DNA from: a virus
Lineage: Duplodnaviria; Heunggongvirae; Uroviricota; Caudoviricetes
Length of the DNA: 33,385 nucleotides
Reading direction: 5' to 3' (one strand)
Virus record (IMG/VR): IMGVR_UViG_2565956726_000001
In this document: positions 12,580-33,385 of the stretch, piece by piece
How the letters are laid out: the number at the start of each line of letters is the position of its first letter
Position numbering within the stretch: position 1 is the first letter of the stretch
The notes under the pieces: model-generated
The model's database searches: none
What the model was told of the DNA's origin: nothing
The model's input: only the letters and a program-made list of their open reading frames with translations
Program-made: the position numbers and the translations under genes

Positions 12580-13662
12580 TTAGAACTGATAAACCAGACC
12601 TACAGCGACGATGTCGTCGGTATCAATACCAGCTGTTTTGGTAAACTTACTATCGTCAATTAAGTTGATTTTGTAATCAACAAAAGTGGACATGTTTTTA
12701 TTAAAGTAGTAAGTAGCACCGACATCGACATACTTGACTAAGTCTCGGTCACCATGAACACCAAGGTCTTTACCTTTTGACTGAAGGTAAGCAACAGATG
12801 GACGCAGACCGAAGTCAAACTGATATTGTGCTACTGCTTCAAAGTTTTGTGCTTTGTTTGCAATATGGTTATTACCAAAAACGGTCATATTCTGAGTTTC
12901 AGAATATGTGGTAGCCAGATAGATATTGTTCGCATCATATTTCAGGCCTGCAGCCCATACTTCCGCATTTTTGCCGGAGGCATTGAATTTGCTCTTACCA
13001 TAGGCGACCTGACCGTCAGTGCGATCTGATTTAGCATAGGTTGCACCCACGCCGAATCCTTCATACTCATAAGTAGTGGAGAAACCGAAACCATCACCAT
13101 TGGCTTCAGTTACGTCAGTGCGGTCATTTTTACCCTGATACTGAGCAGCAAAGTTCAGGCCATCGACCAGACCAAAGAAGTCGTTGTTACGATAAGTTGC
13201 AACACCAGTAGTGCGACCAGTCATGAACACATCTGTTTGGGTCCAGGTATCACCACCGAATTCTGGCAGGACGTCAGTCCACGCACCGATGTCGTATGCT
13301 ACACCGTAGTTACGGCCGTAATCGATTGAGCCGTAATCACCAAATTTCAGGCCTGCAAATGCAAGACGGGTTTTGTCTTTGGAAGAACCTTGAGATTCAG
13401 CACGGTTGCCTTTGAATTCATATTCCCACTGACCGAAACCAGTCAGTTGATCGTTGATTTGGGTTTCACCTTTGAAGCCAAGACGGGCATAAGTAGTATC
13501 ACCATCATCTGCATCATTAGAGGAGAAGTAGTGCTTGGCATTAACTTTCCCGTATAGATCCAGCTTGTTACTGTCTTTATTATAAATTTCAGCTGCCTGA
13601 GCAGACATCGCCATCAGTACTGATGCAGCTACAGCAGAAATTGCCACTGTTAATTTTTTCAT
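12580..13662 (-). CDS. nmpC: Prophage-encoded general porin (OmpC/NmpC/Lc family) with signal peptide
   Basis: 360 aa; signal peptide ending AQA-AE; terminal aromatic residue (..VGLVYQF); located between Q and the lysis genes in reverse orientation, as in DLP12. Confidence 0.9.
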
Positions 13663-25144: not shown

Positions 25145-25498
25145 GTGGCTGATTTCGATAACCTGTTCGATGCTGCCATTGCCCGCGCCGATGAAACGAT
25201 ACGCGGGTACATGGGAACGTCAGCCACCATGACATCCGGTGAGCAGTCCGGCGCTGTGATACGTGGTGTTTTTGATGACCCTGAAAATATCAGCTATGCC
25301 GGACAGGGCGTGCGCGTTGAAGGCTCCAGCCCGTCCCTGTTTGTCCGGACTGATGATGTGCGGCAACTGCGGCGTGGAGACACGCTGACCATCGGTGAGG
25401 AAAACTTCTGGATAGACCGGGTATCGCCGGATGATGGCGGAAGCTGTCATCTCTGGCTTGGGCGTGGCGTTCCGCCTGCCGTTAACCGTCGCCGTTGA
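25145..25498 (+). CDS. FII: Head-tail connector FII
   Basis: 117 aa, lambda FII-like. Confidence 0.9.
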   Translation: MADFDNLFDAAIARADETIRGYMGTSATMTSGEQSGAVIRGVFDDPENISYAGQGVRVEGSSPSLFVRTDDVRQLRRGDTLTIGEENFWIDRVSPDDGGSCHLWLGRGVPPAVNRRR

Positions 25499-25576
25499 AA
25501 GGGGGATGTATGGCCATAAAAGGTCTTGAGCAGGCCGTTGAAAGGGGGATGTATGGCCATACAGGGTCTTGAGCAG
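25491..25576 (+). repeat. 43-bp tandem duplication (2 copies, 2 mismatches) spanning the FII stop and Z start
   Basis: GCCGTTGAAAGGGGGATGTATGGCCATA..GGTCTTGAGCAG occurs at 25491-25533 and 25534-25576, each copy bounded by the 10-bp repeat GCCGTTGAAA. Confidence 0.9.
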
Positions 25577-27286: not shown

Positions 27287-27709
27287 ATGTTCCTGAAAAC
27301 CGAATCATTTGAACATAACGGTGTGACCGTCACGCTTTCTGAACTGTCAGCCCTGCAGCGCATTGAGCATCTCGCCCTGATGAAACGGCAGGCAGAACAG
27401 GCGGAGTCAGACAGCAACCGGAAGTTTACTGTGGAAGACGCCATCAGAACCGGCGCGTTTCTGGTGGCGATGTCCCTGTGGCATAACCATCCGCAGAAGA
27501 CGCAGATGCCGTCCATGAATGAAGCCGTTAAACAGATTGAGCAGGAAGTGCTTACCACCTGGCCCACGGAGGCAATTTCTCATGCTGAAAACGTGGTGTA
27601 CCGGCTGTCTGGTATGTATGAGTTTGTGGTGAATAATGCCCCTGAACAGACAGAGGACGCCGGGCCCGCAGAGCCTGTTTCTGCGGGAAAGTGTTCGACG
27701 GTGAGCTGA
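27287..27709 (+). CDS. G: Tail assembly chaperone gpG
   Basis: 140 aa, lambda G-like. Confidence 0.9.
   Translation: MFLKTESFEHNGVTVTLSELSALQRIEHLALMKRQAEQAESDSNRKFTVEDAIRTGAFLVAMSLWHNHPQKTQMPSMNEAVKQIEQEVLTTWPTEAISHAENVVYRLSGMYEFVVNNAPEQTEDAGPAEPVSAGKCSTVS
27685..27691 (+). promoter_or_regulatory. Programmed -1 ribosomal frameshift site G GGA AAG (G to G-T fusion)
   Basis: Heptamer GGGAAAG in the G zero frame 6 codons before the G stop; the T frame is open from here. Confidence 0.85.
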
Positions 27710-28125
27710 GTTTTGCCCTGAAACTGGCGCGTGAGATGGGGCGACCCGACTGGCGTGCCATGCTTGCCGGGATGTCATCCACGGAGTATGCCGACTGGCA
27801 CCGCTTTTACAGTACCCATTATTTTCATGATGTTCTGCTGGATATGCACTTTTCCGGGCTGACGTACACCGTGCTCAGCCTGTTTTTCAGCGATCCGGAT
27901 ATGCATCCGCTGGATTTCAGTCTGCTGAACCGGCGCGAGGCTGACGAAGAGCCTGAAGATGATGTGCTGATGCAGAAAGCGGCAGGGCTTGCCGGAGGTG
28001 TCCGCTTTGGCCCGGACGGGAATGAAGTTATCCCCGCTTCCCCGGATGTGGCGGACATGACGGAGGATGACGTAATGCTGATGACAGTATCAGAAGGGAT
28101 CGCAGGAGGAGTCCGGTATGGCTGA
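27691..28125 (+). CDS. T: gpT portion of the G-T frameshift fusion chaperone
   Basis: 144-codon ORF in -1 frame relative to G, lambda T-like; expressed only as a fusion. Confidence 0.85.
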   Translation: MFDGELSFALKLAREMGRPDWRAMLAGMSSTEYADWHRFYSTHYFHDVLLDMHFSGLTYTVLSLFFSDPDMHPLDFSLLNRREADEEPEDDVLMQKAAGLAGGVRFGPDGNEVIPASPDVADMTEDDVMLMTVSEGIAGGVRYG

Positions 28126-30679
28126 ACCGGTAGGCGATCTGGTCGTTGATTTGAGTCTGGATGCGGCCAGATTTGACGAGCAGATGGCCAGAGTCAGGCG
28201 TCATTTTTCCGGTACGGAAAGTGATGCGAAAAAAACAGCGGCAGTCGTTGAACAGTCGCTGAGCCGACAGGCGCTGGCTGCACAGAAAGCGGGGATTTCC
28301 GTCGGGCAGTATAAAGCCGCCATGCGTATGCTGCCTGCACAGTTCACCGACGTGGCCACGCAGCTTGCCGGCGGGCAAAGTCCGTGGCTGATCCTGCTGC
28401 AACAGGGGGGGCAGGTGAAGGACTCCTTCGGCGGGATGATCCCCATGTTCAGGGGGCTTGCCGGTGCGATCACCCTGCCGATGGTGGGGGCCACCTCGCT
28501 GGCGGTGGCGACCGGTGCGCTGGCGTATGCCTGGTATCAGGGCAACTCAACCCTGTCCGATTTCAACAAAACGCTGGTCCTTTCCGGCAATCAGGCGGGA
28601 CTGACGGCAGATCGTATGCTGGTCCTGTCCAGAGCCGGGCAGGCGGCAGGGCTGACGTTTAACCAGACCAGCGAGTCACTCAGCGCACTGGTTAAGGCGG
28701 GGGTAAGCGGTGAGGCTCAGATTGCGTCCATCAGCCAGAGTGTGGCGCGTTTCTCCTCTGCATCCGGCGTGGAGGTGGACAAGGTCGCTGAAGCCTTCGG
28801 GAAGCTGACCACAGACCCGACGTCGGGGCTGACGGCGATGGCACGCCAGTTCCATAACGTGACGGCGGAGCAGATTGCGTATGTTGCTCAGTTGCAGCGT
28901 TCCGGCGATGAAGCCGGGGCATTGCAGGCGGCGAACGAGGCCGCAACGAAAGGGTTTGATGACCAGACCCGCCGCCTGAAAGAGAACATGGGCACGCTGG
29001 AGACCTGGGCAGACAGGACTGCGCGGGCATTCAAATCCATGTGGGATGCGGTGCTGGATATTGGTCGTCCTGATACCGCGCAGGAGATGCTGATTAAGGC
29101 AGAGGCTGCGTTTAAGAAAGCAGACGACATCTGGAATCTGCGCAAGGATGATTATTTTGTTAACGATGAAGCGCGGGCGCGTTACTGGGATGATCGTGAA
29201 AAGGCCCGTCTTGCGCTTGAAGCCGCCCGAAAGAAGGCTGAGCAGCAGACTCAACAGGACAAAAATGCGCAGCAGCAGAGCGATACCGAAGCGTCACGGC
29301 TGAAATATACCGAAGAGGCGCAGAAGGCTTACGAACGGCTGCAGACGCCGCTGGAGAAATATACCGCCCGTCAGGAAGAACTGAACAAGGCACTGAAAGA
29401 CGGGAAAATCCTGCAGGCGGATTACAACACGCTGATGGCGGCGGCGAAAAAGGATTATGAAGCGACGCTGAAAAAGCCGAAACAGTCCGGCGTGAAGGTG
29501 TCTGCGGGCGATCGTCAGGAAGACAGTGCTCATGCTGCCCTGCTGACGCTTCAGGCAGAACTCCGGACGCTGGAGAAGCATGCCGGAGCAAATGAGAAAA
29601 TCAGCCAGCAGCGCCGGGATTTGTGGAAGGCGGAGAGTCAGTTCGCGGTACTGGAGGAGGCGGCGCAACGTCGCCAGCTGTCTGCACAGGAGAAATCCCT
29701 GCTGGCGCATAAAGATGAGACGCTGGAGTACAAACGCCAGCTGGCTGCACTTGGCGACAAGGTTACGTATCAGGAGCGCCTGAACGCGCTGGCGCAGCAG
29801 GCGGATAAATTCGCACAGCAGCAACGGGCAAAACGGGCCGCTATTGATGCGAAAAGCCGGGGGCTGACTGACCGGCAGGCAGAACGGGAAGCCACGGAAC
29901 AGCGCCTGAAGGAACAGTATGGCGATAATCCGCTGGCGCTGAATAACGTCATGTCAGAGCAGAAAAAGACCTGGGCGGCTGAAGACCAGCTTCGCGGGAA
30001 CTGGATGGCAGGCCTGAAGTCCGGCTGGAGTGAGTGGGAAGAGAGCGCCACGGACAGTATGTCGCAGGTAAAAAGTGCAGCCACGCAGACCTTTGATGGT
30101 ATTGCACAGAATATGGCGGCGATGCTGACCGGCAGTGAGCAGAACTGGCGCAGCTTCACCCGTTCCGTGCTGTCCATGATGACAGAAATTCTGCTTAAGC
30201 AGGCAATGGTGGGGATTGTCGGGAGTATCGGCAGCGCCATTGGCGGGGCTGTTGGTGGCGGCGCATCCGCGTCAGGCGGTACAGCCATTCAGGCCGCTGC
30301 GGCGAAATTCCATTTTGCAACCGGAGGATTTACGGGAACCGGCGGCAAATATGAGCCAGCGGGGATTGTTCACCGTGGTGAGTTTGTCTTCACGAAGGAG
30401 GCAACCAGCCGGATTGGCGTGGGGAATCTTTACCGGCTGATGCGCGGCTATGCCACCGGCGGTTATGTCGGTACACCGGGCAGCATGGCAGACAGCCGGT
30501 CGCAGGCGTCCGGGACGTTTGAGCAGAATAACCATGTGGTGATTAACAACGACGGCACGAACGGGCAGATAGGTCCGGCTGCTCTGAAGGCGGTGTATGA
30601 CATGGCCCGCAAGGGTGCCCGTGATGAAATTCAGACACAGATGCGTGATGGTGGCCTGTTCTCCGGAGGTGGACGATGA
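28118..30679 (+). CDS. H: Tail tape measure protein gpH
   Basis: 853 aa, lambda H-like. Confidence 0.95.
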   Translation: MAEPVGDLVVDLSLDAARFDEQMARVRRHFSGTESDAKKTAAVVEQSLSRQALAAQKAGISVGQYKAAMRMLPAQFTDVATQLAGGQSPWLILLQQGGQVKDSFGGMIPMFRGLAGAITLPMVGATSLAVATGALAYAWYQGNSTLSDFNKTLVLSGNQAGLTADRMLVLSRAGQAAGLTFNQTSESLSALVKAGVSGEAQIASISQSVARFSSASGVEVDKVAEAFGKLTTDPTSGLTAMARQFHNVTAEQIAYVAQLQRSGDEAGALQAANEAATKGFDDQTRRLKENMGTLETWADRTARAFKSMWDAVLDIGRPDTAQEMLIKAEAAFKKADDIWNLRKDDYFVNDEARARYWDDREKARLALEAARKKAEQQTQQDKNAQQQSDTEASRLKYTEEAQKAYERLQTPLEKYTARQEELNKALKDGKILQADYNTLMAAAKKDYEATLKKPKQSGVKVSAGDRQEDSAHAALLTLQAELRTLEKHAGANEKISQQRRDLWKAESQFAVLEEAAQRRQLSAQEKSLLAHKDETLEYKRQLAALGDKVTYQERLNALAQQADKFAQQQRAKRAAIDAKSRGLTDRQAEREATEQRLKEQYGDNPLALNNVMSEQKKTWAAEDQLRGNWMAGLKSGWSEWEESATDSMSQVKSAATQTFDGIAQNMAAMLTGSEQNWRSFTRSVLSMMTEILLKQAMVGIVGSIGSAIGGAVGGGASASGGTAIQAAAAKFHFATGGFTGTGGKYEPAGIVHRGEFVFTKEATSRIGVGNLYRLMRGYATGGYVGTPGSMADSRSQASGTFEQNNHVVINNDGTNGQIGPAALKAVYDMARKGARDEIQTQMRDGGLFSGGGR

Positions 30680-31005: not shown

Positions 31006-31703
31006 TGCAGGATATCCGGCAGGAAACACTGAATGAATGCACCCGTGCGGAGCAGTCGGCCAGCGTGGTGCTCTGGGAAATCGACCTGACAGAGGTCGGT
31101 GGAGAACGTTATTTTTTCTGTAATGAGCAGAACGAAAAAGGTGAGCCGGTCACCTGGCAGGGGCGACAGTATCAGCCGTATCCCATTCAGGGGAGCGGTT
31201 TTGAACTGAATGGCAAAGGCACCAGTACGCGCCCCACGCTGACGGTTTCTAACCTGTACGGTATGGTCACCGGGATGGCGGAAGATATGCAGAGTCTGGT
31301 CGGCGGAACGGTGGTCCGGCGTAAGGTTTACGCCCGTTTTCTGGATGCGGTGAACTTCGTCAACGGAAACAGTTACGCCGATCCGGAGCAGGAGGTGATC
31401 AGCCGCTGGCGCATTGAGCAGTGCAGCGAACTGAGCGCGGTGAGTGCCTCCTTTGTACTGTCCACGCCGACGGAAACGGATGGCGCTGTTTTTCCGGGAC
31501 GTATCATGCTGGCCAACACCTGCACCTGGACCTATCGCGGTGACGAGTGCGGTTATAGCGGTCCGGCTGTCGCGGATGAATATGACCAGCCAACGTCCGA
31601 TATCACGAAGGATAAATGCAGCAAATGCCTGAGTGGCTGTAAGTTTCGCAATAATGTCGGCAACTTTGGCAGCTTCCTTTCCATTAACAAACTTTCGCAG
31701 TAA
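31005..31703 (+). CDS. L: Tail tip protein gpL
   Basis: 232 aa, lambda L-like. Confidence 0.95.
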   Translation: MQDIRQETLNECTRAEQSASVVLWEIDLTEVGGERYFFCNEQNEKGEPVTWQGRQYQPYPIQGSGFELNGKGTSTRPTLTVSNLYGMVTGMAEDMQSLVGGTVVRRKVYARFLDAVNFVNGNSYADPEQEVISRWRIEQCSELSAVSASFVLSTPTETDGAVFPGRIMLANTCTWTYRGDECGYSGPAVADEYDQPTSDITKDKCSKCLSGCKFRNNVGNFGSFLSINKLSQ

Positions 31704-31708
31704 ATCCC

Positions 31709-32452
31709 ATGACAGAGACAGAATCAGCGATTCTGGCGCACGCCCGGCGATGTGCGCCAGCGGAGTCGTGCGGCTTCGTGGTGAGAACGCCGGAGGAGGA
31801 AAGATATTTTCCCTGCGTGAATATCTCCGGTGAGCCGGAGGAGTATTTCCGGATGTCGCCGGAGGACTGGCTGAGTGCAGAAATGCAGGGTGAGATTGTG
31901 GCGCTGGTCCACAGCCACCCCGGTGGCCTGCCCTGGCTGAGTGAGGCCGACCGGCGGCTGCAGGTGCAGAGTGATTTGCCGTGGTGGCTGGTCTGCCGGG
32001 GGACGATTCATAAGTTCCGCTGTGTGCCGCATCTCACCGGGCGGCGCTTTGAGCACGGTGTGACGGACTGTTACACACTGTTCCGGGATGCTTATCATCT
32101 GGCGGGGATTGAGATGCCGGACTTTCATCGTGAGGATGACTGGTGGCGTAACGGCCAGAATCTCTATCTGGATAATCTGGAGGCGACGGGGCTGTATCAG
32201 GTGCCGTTGTCAGCGGCACAGCCGGGCGATGTGCTGCTGTGCTGTTTTGGTTCATCGGTGCCGAATCACGCCGCAATTTACTGCGGCGACGGCGAGCTGC
32301 TGCACCATATTCCTGAACAACTGAGCAAACGAGAGAGGTACACCGACAAATGGCAGCGACGCACACACTCCCTCTGGCGTCACCGGGCATGGCGCGCATC
32401 TGCCTTTACGGGGATTTACAACGATTTGGTCGCCGCATCGACCTTCGTGTGA
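31709..32452 (+). CDS. K: Tail tip assembly protein gpK (JAB/MPN plus NlpC/P60-like); long form, classical 199-aa start at 31853
   Basis: Open frame starts right after L; HSHP JAMM-like motif; C-terminal 199 aa match recalled lambda K. Confidence 0.85.
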   Translation: MTETESAILAHARRCAPAESCGFVVRTPEEERYFPCVNISGEPEEYFRMSPEDWLSAEMQGEIVALVHSHPGGLPWLSEADRRLQVQSDLPWWLVCRGTIHKFRCVPHLTGRRFEHGVTDCYTLFRDAYHLAGIEMPDFHREDDWWRNGQNLYLDNLEATGLYQVPLSAAQPGDVLLCCFGSSVPNHAAIYCGDGELLHHIPEQLSKRERYTDKWQRRTHSLWRHRAWRASAFTGIYNDLVAASTFV

Positions 32453-33020
32453 AAACGAGGGCTGAAGCCATCCGGGCACTGGCCACACAGCTCCCGGCGT
32501 TTCGTCAGAAACTGAGCGACGGCTGGTATCAGGTACGGATTGCCGGGCGGGACGTCAGCACGTCCGGGTTAACGGCGCAGTTACATGAGACTCTGCCTGA
32601 TGGCGCTGTGATTCATATTGTTCCCAGAGTCGCCGGGGCCAAGTCAGGTGGCGTATTCCAGATTGTCCTGGGGGCTGCCGCCATTGCCGGATCATTCTTT
32701 ACCGCCGGAGCCACCCTTGCAGCATGGGGGCAGCCATTGGGGCCGGTGGTATGACCGGCATCCTGTTTTCTCTCGGTGCCAGTATGGTGCTCGGTGGTGT
32801 GGCGCAGATGCTGGCACCGAAAGCCAGAACTCCCCGTACACAGACAACGGATAACGGTAAGCAGAACACCTATTTCTCCTCACTGGATAACATGGTTGCC
32901 CAGGGCAATGTTCTGCCTGTTCTGTACGGGGAAATGCGCGTGGGGTCACGCGTGGTTTCTCAGGAGATCAGCACGGCAGACGAAGGGGACGGTGGTCAGG
33001 TTGTGGTGATTGGTCGCTGA
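32350..33020 (+). pseudogene. I: Tail assembly protein gpI, split by a 1-bp deletion in a G-run (32726-32730)
   Basis: ORF 32350-32754 carries the first 128 residues of lambda I, ORF 32724-33020 the last 95 in the +1 frame; junction is TGGGGGCAGCC where lambda has one more G. Confidence 0.75.
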
Positions 33021-33080: not shown

Positions 33081-33385
33081 ATGGGTAAAGGAAGCAGTAA
33101 GGGGCATACCCCGCGCGAAGCGAAGGACAACCTGAAGTCCACGCAGTTGCTGAGTGTGATCGATGCCATCAGCGAAGGGCCGGTTGAAGGTCCGGTGGAT
33201 GGATTAAAAAGCGTGCTGCTGAACAGTACGCCGGTGCTGGACAGTGAGGGGAATACCAATATATCCGGCGTCACGGTGGTGTTCCGGGCCGGTGAGCAGG
33301 AGCAGACACCGCCGGAGGGATTTGAATCCTCCGGCTCCGAGACGGTGCTGGGTACGGAAGTGAAGTACGACACGCCGATTACCCG
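33081..33385 (+). CDS. J: Tail tip/host specificity protein gpJ, 5' partial (runs off window end)
   Basis: ATG 33081 with GAGGA SD; MGKGSSKGHTPREAKDNLKSTQLLSVIDAISEGPVEGPVDGL matches the lambda J N-terminus. Confidence 0.9.
   Translation, partial: MGKGSSKGHTPREAKDNLKSTQLLSVIDAISEGPVEGPVDGLKSVLLNSTPVLDSEGNTNISGVTVVFRAGEQEQTPPEGFESSGSETVLGTEVKYDTPIT

Follow-up and report, generated by a model that had tools for sequence, protein, structure and literature searches.

The locus examined here raises the question of why gene I of a lambdoid prophage, which encodes a tail-tip protein, is found as two overlapping open reading frames, and whether this split reflects a genuine lesion, a working two-piece arrangement, a sequencing error or a switch. 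The window, meaning the whole stretch of DNA analysed (33,385 nucleotides, IMG/VR record IMGVR_UViG_2565956726_000001), was traced to scaffold KI530678.1 (GCA_000488135.1) of E. coli UMEA 3323-1, where it constitutes a whole contig between N-gaps and where scaffold positions are obtained by adding 426503 to window positions. KI530678.1 matches the final 10,937 bases of the window without a difference, and a gap of 1075 N within gene J comes next, while a scaffold gap of 175 N, located inside an insertion sequence, precedes window base 1. The prophage adjoins fimZ, which places it at the argU/DLP12 site. Taken together, the evidence set out below makes it very probable that gene I carries a genuine, inherited deletion of one G from a tract of six (G6 to G5), with a consequent loss of tail function that we infer from the structure of the protein and from the distribution of the allele.

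The closest complete genome was that of E. coli ST3 (NZ_CP121087), to which window positions 987-33385 were aligned at 99.86% identity. In ST3 the prophage is flanked by the tRNA-Arg/intD end beside fimZ and, at its other boundary, by the ompT side of the chromosome, and it has a full gene set from int to the tail fibres; in the stretch yfdT to K, the window has intact copies of all 44 other coding sequences of ST3. Over these 32.4 kb the two sequences differ by 44 substitutions and a single true indel, the G in gene I, for which ST3 has the six-G form. Two further gaps reported by the alignment were rejected as indels, being an alignment artefact of a CAG/AGT substitution. Two other features were observed in this part of the prophage. 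An ompC-like porin gene (12580-13662, minus strand, 360 residues, annotated ompC in ST3) separates the Q antiterminator gene from the lysis genes and is a moron-type cargo gene. At the FII/Z junction (window 25491-25576) a 43-bp tandem duplication was found, in which GCCGTTGAAAGGGGGATGTATGGCCATA.A.GGTCTTGAGCAG is present twice; it copies the Shine-Dalgarno element and the start of Z, so that a short decoy ORF arises before the real Z start at 25553. The duplication is also present in ST3, and one related prophage is apparently without it (Z starting 12 nt after FII, versus 55).

Gene I lies between gene K (31709-32452, plus strand, 247 residues, intact, with Prok-JAB and NlpC/P60 domains) and gene J, which the end of the contig truncates to its 5' part (33081-33385, plus strand); in sister prophages J is intact, with 1137 residues. 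The original prediction was that lambda I is made up by the ORFs at 32350-32754 and 32724-33020 together, which lie in different frames as a result of a 1-bp deletion in a G tract that has six G in lambda. The positions proved exact, and alignment to lambda J02459 confirmed the missing base. The junction reads GCAGCATGGGGGCAGCC, with five G at 32726-32730 (plus strand; KI530678.1 459229-459233), whereas lambda J02459 and E. coli RM9872 have six, which was the sole difference from the window in a 162-nt alignment; six G are found in lambda and in more than 99% of relatives. Insertion of one G restored an ORF of 223 residues, 221 of which are identical to lambda gpI (PDB 8iyk chain I, residues 1-223), the two substitutions being G37R and I164T. 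The UniProt entry of lambda gpI is P03730. The 5' fragment (ORF1, 32350-32754, plus strand, 134 residues) encodes native gpI residues 1-127 followed by QPLGPVV and a stop codon at 32752-32754, and the 3' fragment (ORF2, 32724-33020, plus strand, 98 residues, ESK41845.1) encodes a methionine and native residues 127-223, which corrects the figure of 95 residues first given for the C-terminal part to 97 native residues after the initiator. The two ORFs overlap by 31 nt. The split is not a chance pattern but a single-base difference from a highly conserved gene. A terminator-like hairpin at 32742-32759 was not retained as a feature, such hairpins occurring at chance level (2 found versus 0.9 expected).

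The repaired protein was compared with lambda gpI (PDB 8iyk, 8iyl, 8k35, 8xcg and 9e7m; PF06805) in order to delineate what lies on either side of the break. The two genes have the same position between K and J and encode the same parts in the same order, namely a ubiquitin-like N-terminal domain, a GG motif at residues 100-101, two hydrophobic helices, a plug at residues 159-175 and C-terminal beta-strands. The transmembrane helices predicted by TMHMM for gpI, at residues 68-91 and 96-118 of the 190-residue form (PMC7291167), correspond to residues 101-124 and 129-151 of the 223-residue form, and the frame break at residue 127 thus falls in the short loop between them. ORF1 contains the ubiquitin-like domain (a PF06805 hit to residues 14-97 at 99.4 bits, where the cut-off is 23.8, and E = 1.6e-28), the GG motif and predicted transmembrane helix 1. 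ORF2 contains helix 2, the plug and the beta-strands seen within the lambda tail tip. Its coding range takes in residues 133-222 of the repaired protein, a stretch that hit the gpI chains of 9e7m at E = 1e-51, and ORF2 itself aligns to positions 121-202 of the 203-position phrog_32 profile, 'tail assembly protein'. The window gene differs from lambda gpI in that one G is lost after codon 127, so that the two domains are divided between overlapping ORFs instead of sharing one continuous reading frame. Because the reading frame is interrupted, the locus is, as judged from its sequence, a pseudogene of the lambda gpI/TAPI family and not a functional member.

The annotated forms of the gene are shorter than those used here. 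Both GenBank and PGAP start gene I at GTG 32449, giving a 101-residue form of ORF1 (ESK41844.1, G966_00625), which is on record once, and a full form of 190 residues. No record calls the 134-residue ORF1 as a gene, gene callers choosing GTG 32449. The PF06805 domain begins at residue 14 of the 223-residue form, whose ATG at 32350 lies within K, and the annotated GTG start therefore removes the first beta-strand of the domain.

In cryo-EM structures a gpI trimer is a structural part of the tail tip; located inside the gpJ cone, the trimer acts as the plug of the tube and as a support for the gpH C-terminus, and it is docked to gpJ through beta-sheet augmentation (PMC11101478, PMC10721106, PMC12617516); the residues resolved were 101-223 (PMC11101478), 135-223 (PMC10721106) and 134-222 (PMC12617516). 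In the preferred reading, a 1-bp deletion passed down vertically in one E. coli lineage ends the normal frame after residue 127, so that normal decoding no longer yields full-length gpI. The ubiquitin-like N-terminal domain and helix 1 are uncoupled from helix 2, the plug and the beta-strands, which form the trimeric plug in the gpJ cone, and without full-length gpI the tail-tip initiator would fail to assemble properly, such that induction would be expected to yield few or no infectious particles. On the strength of these structures, and of the absence of the five-G allele (G5) from 80 phage genomes, we infer that tail-tip assembly would fail or be severely reduced.

Some residual gpI activity is nevertheless conceivable, either from the ATG of ORF2 or from a -1 slip on G-GGG, and in an unlikely alternative the split would be functional or leaky, the C-terminal part being made from ATG 32724 by reinitiation or from a weak GGAG, or slippage occurring at a low level, so that some tails would assemble. 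The original prediction was formally right that this ATG could allow the C-terminal part to be expressed: the deletion itself brings the codon into frame with that part exactly at the break, within the ORF overlap and with the ORF1 stop codon 28 nt downstream. Were tRNA-Gly to slip by -1 on G-GGG, precisely the wild-type sequence would be regained. ORF2 spans every gpI residue seen in two of the three virion structures (8iyk-type and 9e7m, 134/135-223), three copies of gpI only are needed per virion, and the remaining head and tail genes near gene I are still intact across the clade that carries G5. Furthermore, gpK was proposed to cleave the ubiquitin-like domain from gpI at its last glycine by means of its JAB peptidase (Iyer et al. 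2006; PMC1779556), in which case the N- and C-terminal parts may normally be separate anyway. However, this predicted cleavage is at GG 100-101 and one of the structures is resolved from residue 101, from which mature gpI would include helix 1, and ORF2 is without it. The only Shine-Dalgarno-like element upstream of ATG 32724 is GGAG at 32707-32710, 13 nt away, which is a poor spacing; G5 was found in none of the phage genomes; the clade occupies one chromosomal site wherever the flank is readable, in keeping with vertical inheritance and without any indication of viral spread; and the neighbouring genes could still be intact because the lesion is young. A viable two-piece gpI, with ORF1 and ORF2 made separately or joined by -1 slippage and the lineage still building working tails, is decidedly improbable. 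If it were true, covalent linkage of the gpI halves, and hence the proposed processing of I by the K JAB domain, would be dispensable.

The preferred reading, an inherited loss of full-length gpI, requires that the missing base be real. The original prediction had left a genuine pseudogenising mutation, a slippage-prone tract and a homopolymer sequencing error side by side, and comparison with closely related genomes, which it had put forward as a check, proved decisive between the first and the last. In the part of the window aligned to ST3 there are 143 homopolymer runs of at least 5 bases, and the gene I G is the one indel among them. As a substitute for read evidence, the exact window K protein was then looked up across public assemblies; this protein differs from that of ST3 at 5 amino-acid positions and served as a haplotype marker, and such a look-up of an exact neighbouring protein offers a quick stand-in for reads. 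In the assembly collection 36 blocks contain the exact K protein, and all ten of the other assemblies that were read with it carry G5, with zero gaps and 99.7-100% identity to the window (CP164275.1, CP164475.1, CP164635.1, KE699059.1, KQ088929.1, DABDHH010000039.1, DABFNM010000108.1, DABCBC010000090.1, JBNHRE010000142.1 and DAXPLY010000059.1). These range from draft contigs of 3.6-45 kb to three complete chromosomes. One of them, DABCBC010000090.1, has the rare R37 SNP in common with the window and is 100% identical to it over 1673 nt. At the six sister loci with long flanks the gene order of the tail module is unchanged, and three of them reach the right-hand chromosomal flank of the window; between each of these six and the window, 5-15 SNPs were counted in comparisons covering up to 11.7 kb, versus 22 substitutions and the G for ST3. 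On these comparisons the change from G6 to G5 is a real, inherited mutation in gene I, as the original prediction had allowed, and a homopolymer error is rejected for the window.

In the corresponding alternative, the missing G would have arisen as an artefact when the UMEA 3323-1 draft was sequenced or assembled, the true genome having six G and an intact gene I. Several circumstances speak for it: 660 nt separate the G tract from the end of the contig, where the scaffold has a gap in J that was induced by a repeat, and the gene I tract is a frequent site of artefacts in public data generally, the 98-residue ORF2 being found in many long-contig assemblies with shredded neighbouring tail genes, as is typical of long-read homopolymer errors. 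The UMEA 3323-1 assembly, however, is a gapped scaffold draft without sign of homopolymer errors, its contig having no other indel across the 143 tracts, and the ten assemblies of the same lineage all have G5 while their other tail genes are intact. An isolated assembly error in UMEA 3323-1 could not account for an allele common to a whole lineage with many separate sequencing and assembly efforts behind it, and the artefact reading as a whole is very improbable. A re-assembly of the UMEA 3323-1 reads was sought by means of the R37 protein forms and none was found; a Logan contig (run ERR3333550) encoding the repaired 190-residue R37 protein was considered as a G6 re-assembly of this strain and rejected, as it represents a different prophage (96.8% identical, with an 859-residue H and a different stf). 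In all, 267 blocks of the assembly collection contain the 98-residue ORF2, and the tail genes beside it are fragmented in most of the long contigs among the matches listed. With the neighbouring tail genes in pieces, G5 in many of these other records is probably a long-read artefact. Frameshifted I calls in shredded chromosome-length assemblies should consequently not be taken as biology, and each is to be judged by its context.

The frequency of tract-length variants was estimated using an 81-nt query around the tract. Exact G5 was found in 13 of 2827 complete E. coli records and in none of 80 deposited phage genomes; the phage records Chlobot, Lambda_ev058 and PhiR34_1, which give the same match length as G5, were rejected, gene I being intact in each and the I-J spacer 1 nt shorter. 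A seven-G form (G7) was found in 5 of 2799 complete E. coli records, all of them mouse isolates with adjacent accession numbers. As controls, 1-bp deletions were counted in a G7 tract in H (7/3701) and a G6 tract in Z (4/3104), relative to which the excess of G5 is at most 2-3.6 times (Fisher p = 0.069 and 0.026, respectively). The suggestion of a slippage-prone tract thus holds to a small degree at best, variants with one G more or fewer amounting to ~0.5% of records, of the same order as the two control tracts, and the gene I tract may be a mild hot spot at most. That the tract acts as a phase-variable or programmed on/off switch of tail production, to which the existence of both G5 and G7 among complete E. 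coli genomes and the somewhat higher count of G5 relative to the controls might point, is so improbable as to be negligible, given that the variants occur at a rate within the order of magnitude of the controls (0.1-0.2%), that the G7 records all come from mouse isolates with adjacent accessions, that the lineage members examined are all fixed at G5 and length switching among close relatives well above background was not seen in them, that six G is short for a contingency tract, and that relatives encode one ORF with no conserved two-frame design of the lambda G/GT kind, the split being absent from ~99.5% of prophage records.

The history of the inherited deletion was examined through its linkage to neighbouring variants. 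Fifteen of the 44 substitutions relative to ST3 are clustered within 243 nt in K (window 31634-31876), and in the comparison of the window with ST3 this cluster is followed by the R37 SNP and then by the deletion. This cluster is probably a patch acquired by recombination, or else the trace of an earlier divergence of two prophage sub-lineages. The window K allele is wholly linked to G5 in the ten other assemblies examined. In RM8082 (NZ_CP043825.1), gene F1745_RS02895 carries this very G5 allele, its 781-nt context differing from that of the window by one SNP, and is labelled 'frameshifted' by PGAP; there, however, K is of the ST3 type and J is marked frameshifted, in contrast to the window lineage, with its other K allele and with J intact in the sisters. 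The combination of G5 with an ST3-type K indicates either that the tract has mutated more than once or that recombination has separated K from I. G5 is also present in two prophage loci only ~90% identical to the window prophage, where assembly errors are possible, and these suggest that the allele may have arisen recurrently.

Individual members of the lineage carry private lesions in addition. In UMEA 3323-1 part of an IS3-family insertion sequence (1-986, plus strand, with an orfB transposase at 54-944) is inserted in intD, the contig beginning inside the element; the 5' fragment of the integrase gene (987-1302, minus strand) is interrupted at ~986/987, and in the scaffold the integrase halves flank the insertion sequence, the second half lying past the 175-N gap. 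Window positions 1-986 have no match to ST3, the int::IS junction was sought in other public records and the same junction was found in none, and the int-IS fusion ORF is on record for UMEA 3323-1 only. With intD broken in this way, the UMEA 3323-1 prophage is already unable to make integrase, and the insertion looks like a private second inactivating lesion, by which the prophage would additionally be locked in place. CP164475.1 has a 1-bp deletion in the H G7 tract (equivalent to window 28405-28411), for which no H protein is called; as this is the tract that was used as a control, the deletion could be a further decay step or an assembly error. CP164635.1 has an insertion sequence in a tail-fibre gene. 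In KE699059.1 (4608-7672) a duplicated segment comprising the 3' end of H, M and L was observed upstream of K, and either a tandem duplication or a scaffolding artefact would account for it.

The substitution pattern of the clade was considered as well. Synonymous and non-synonymous SNPs stand at 16:9, in a small sample confounded by recombination, two SNP clusters in the clade resembling recombination patches. This ratio is not what long neutral decay predicts and counts against the preferred reading; as a test of ongoing selection on the tail genes it was rejected, there being too few SNPs and these being confounded by recombination. The private lesions of the clade members accord with the usual slow decay of a vertically inherited prophage.

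Two known frameshifts in lambda tail genes are instructive for comparison. In stf (PaPa versus Ur-lambda) a stable single-base frameshift likewise splits a tail gene into two ORFs (PMC10721106). However, stf is dispensable for plaque formation, whereas I is a tail-tip gene encoding a structural plug, and a stronger defect would therefore be expected. The programmed -1 frameshift of lambda G/GT likewise involves two overlapping frames in a tail gene, and the pair is present and normal in the window (G 27287-27709, T 27691-28125). Conservation of G/GT extends to all relatives, and the pair has a slippery site dedicated to it, whereas the split of I is missing from more than 99% of relatives and from all 80 phage genomes, and is thus to be regarded as a mutation and not as a design. 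Each relative whose tract was read for this comparison has the single-ORF G6 form.

The finding is a case of ordinary prophage pseudogenisation, of a kind already annotated in RM8082, and it has little significance beyond annotation. G966_00625 and ESK41845.1, at present 'hypothetical proteins', should be merged into one frameshifted I pseudogene, and in the PGAP-annotated sister genomes no protein is called between K and J. The UMEA 3323-1 prophage should be scored as defective twice, in I and in int. For the gpI family, the G5 lineage offers a natural test of whether gpI must be one polypeptide, which bears on the proposed cleavage of gpI by the gpK JAB domain.
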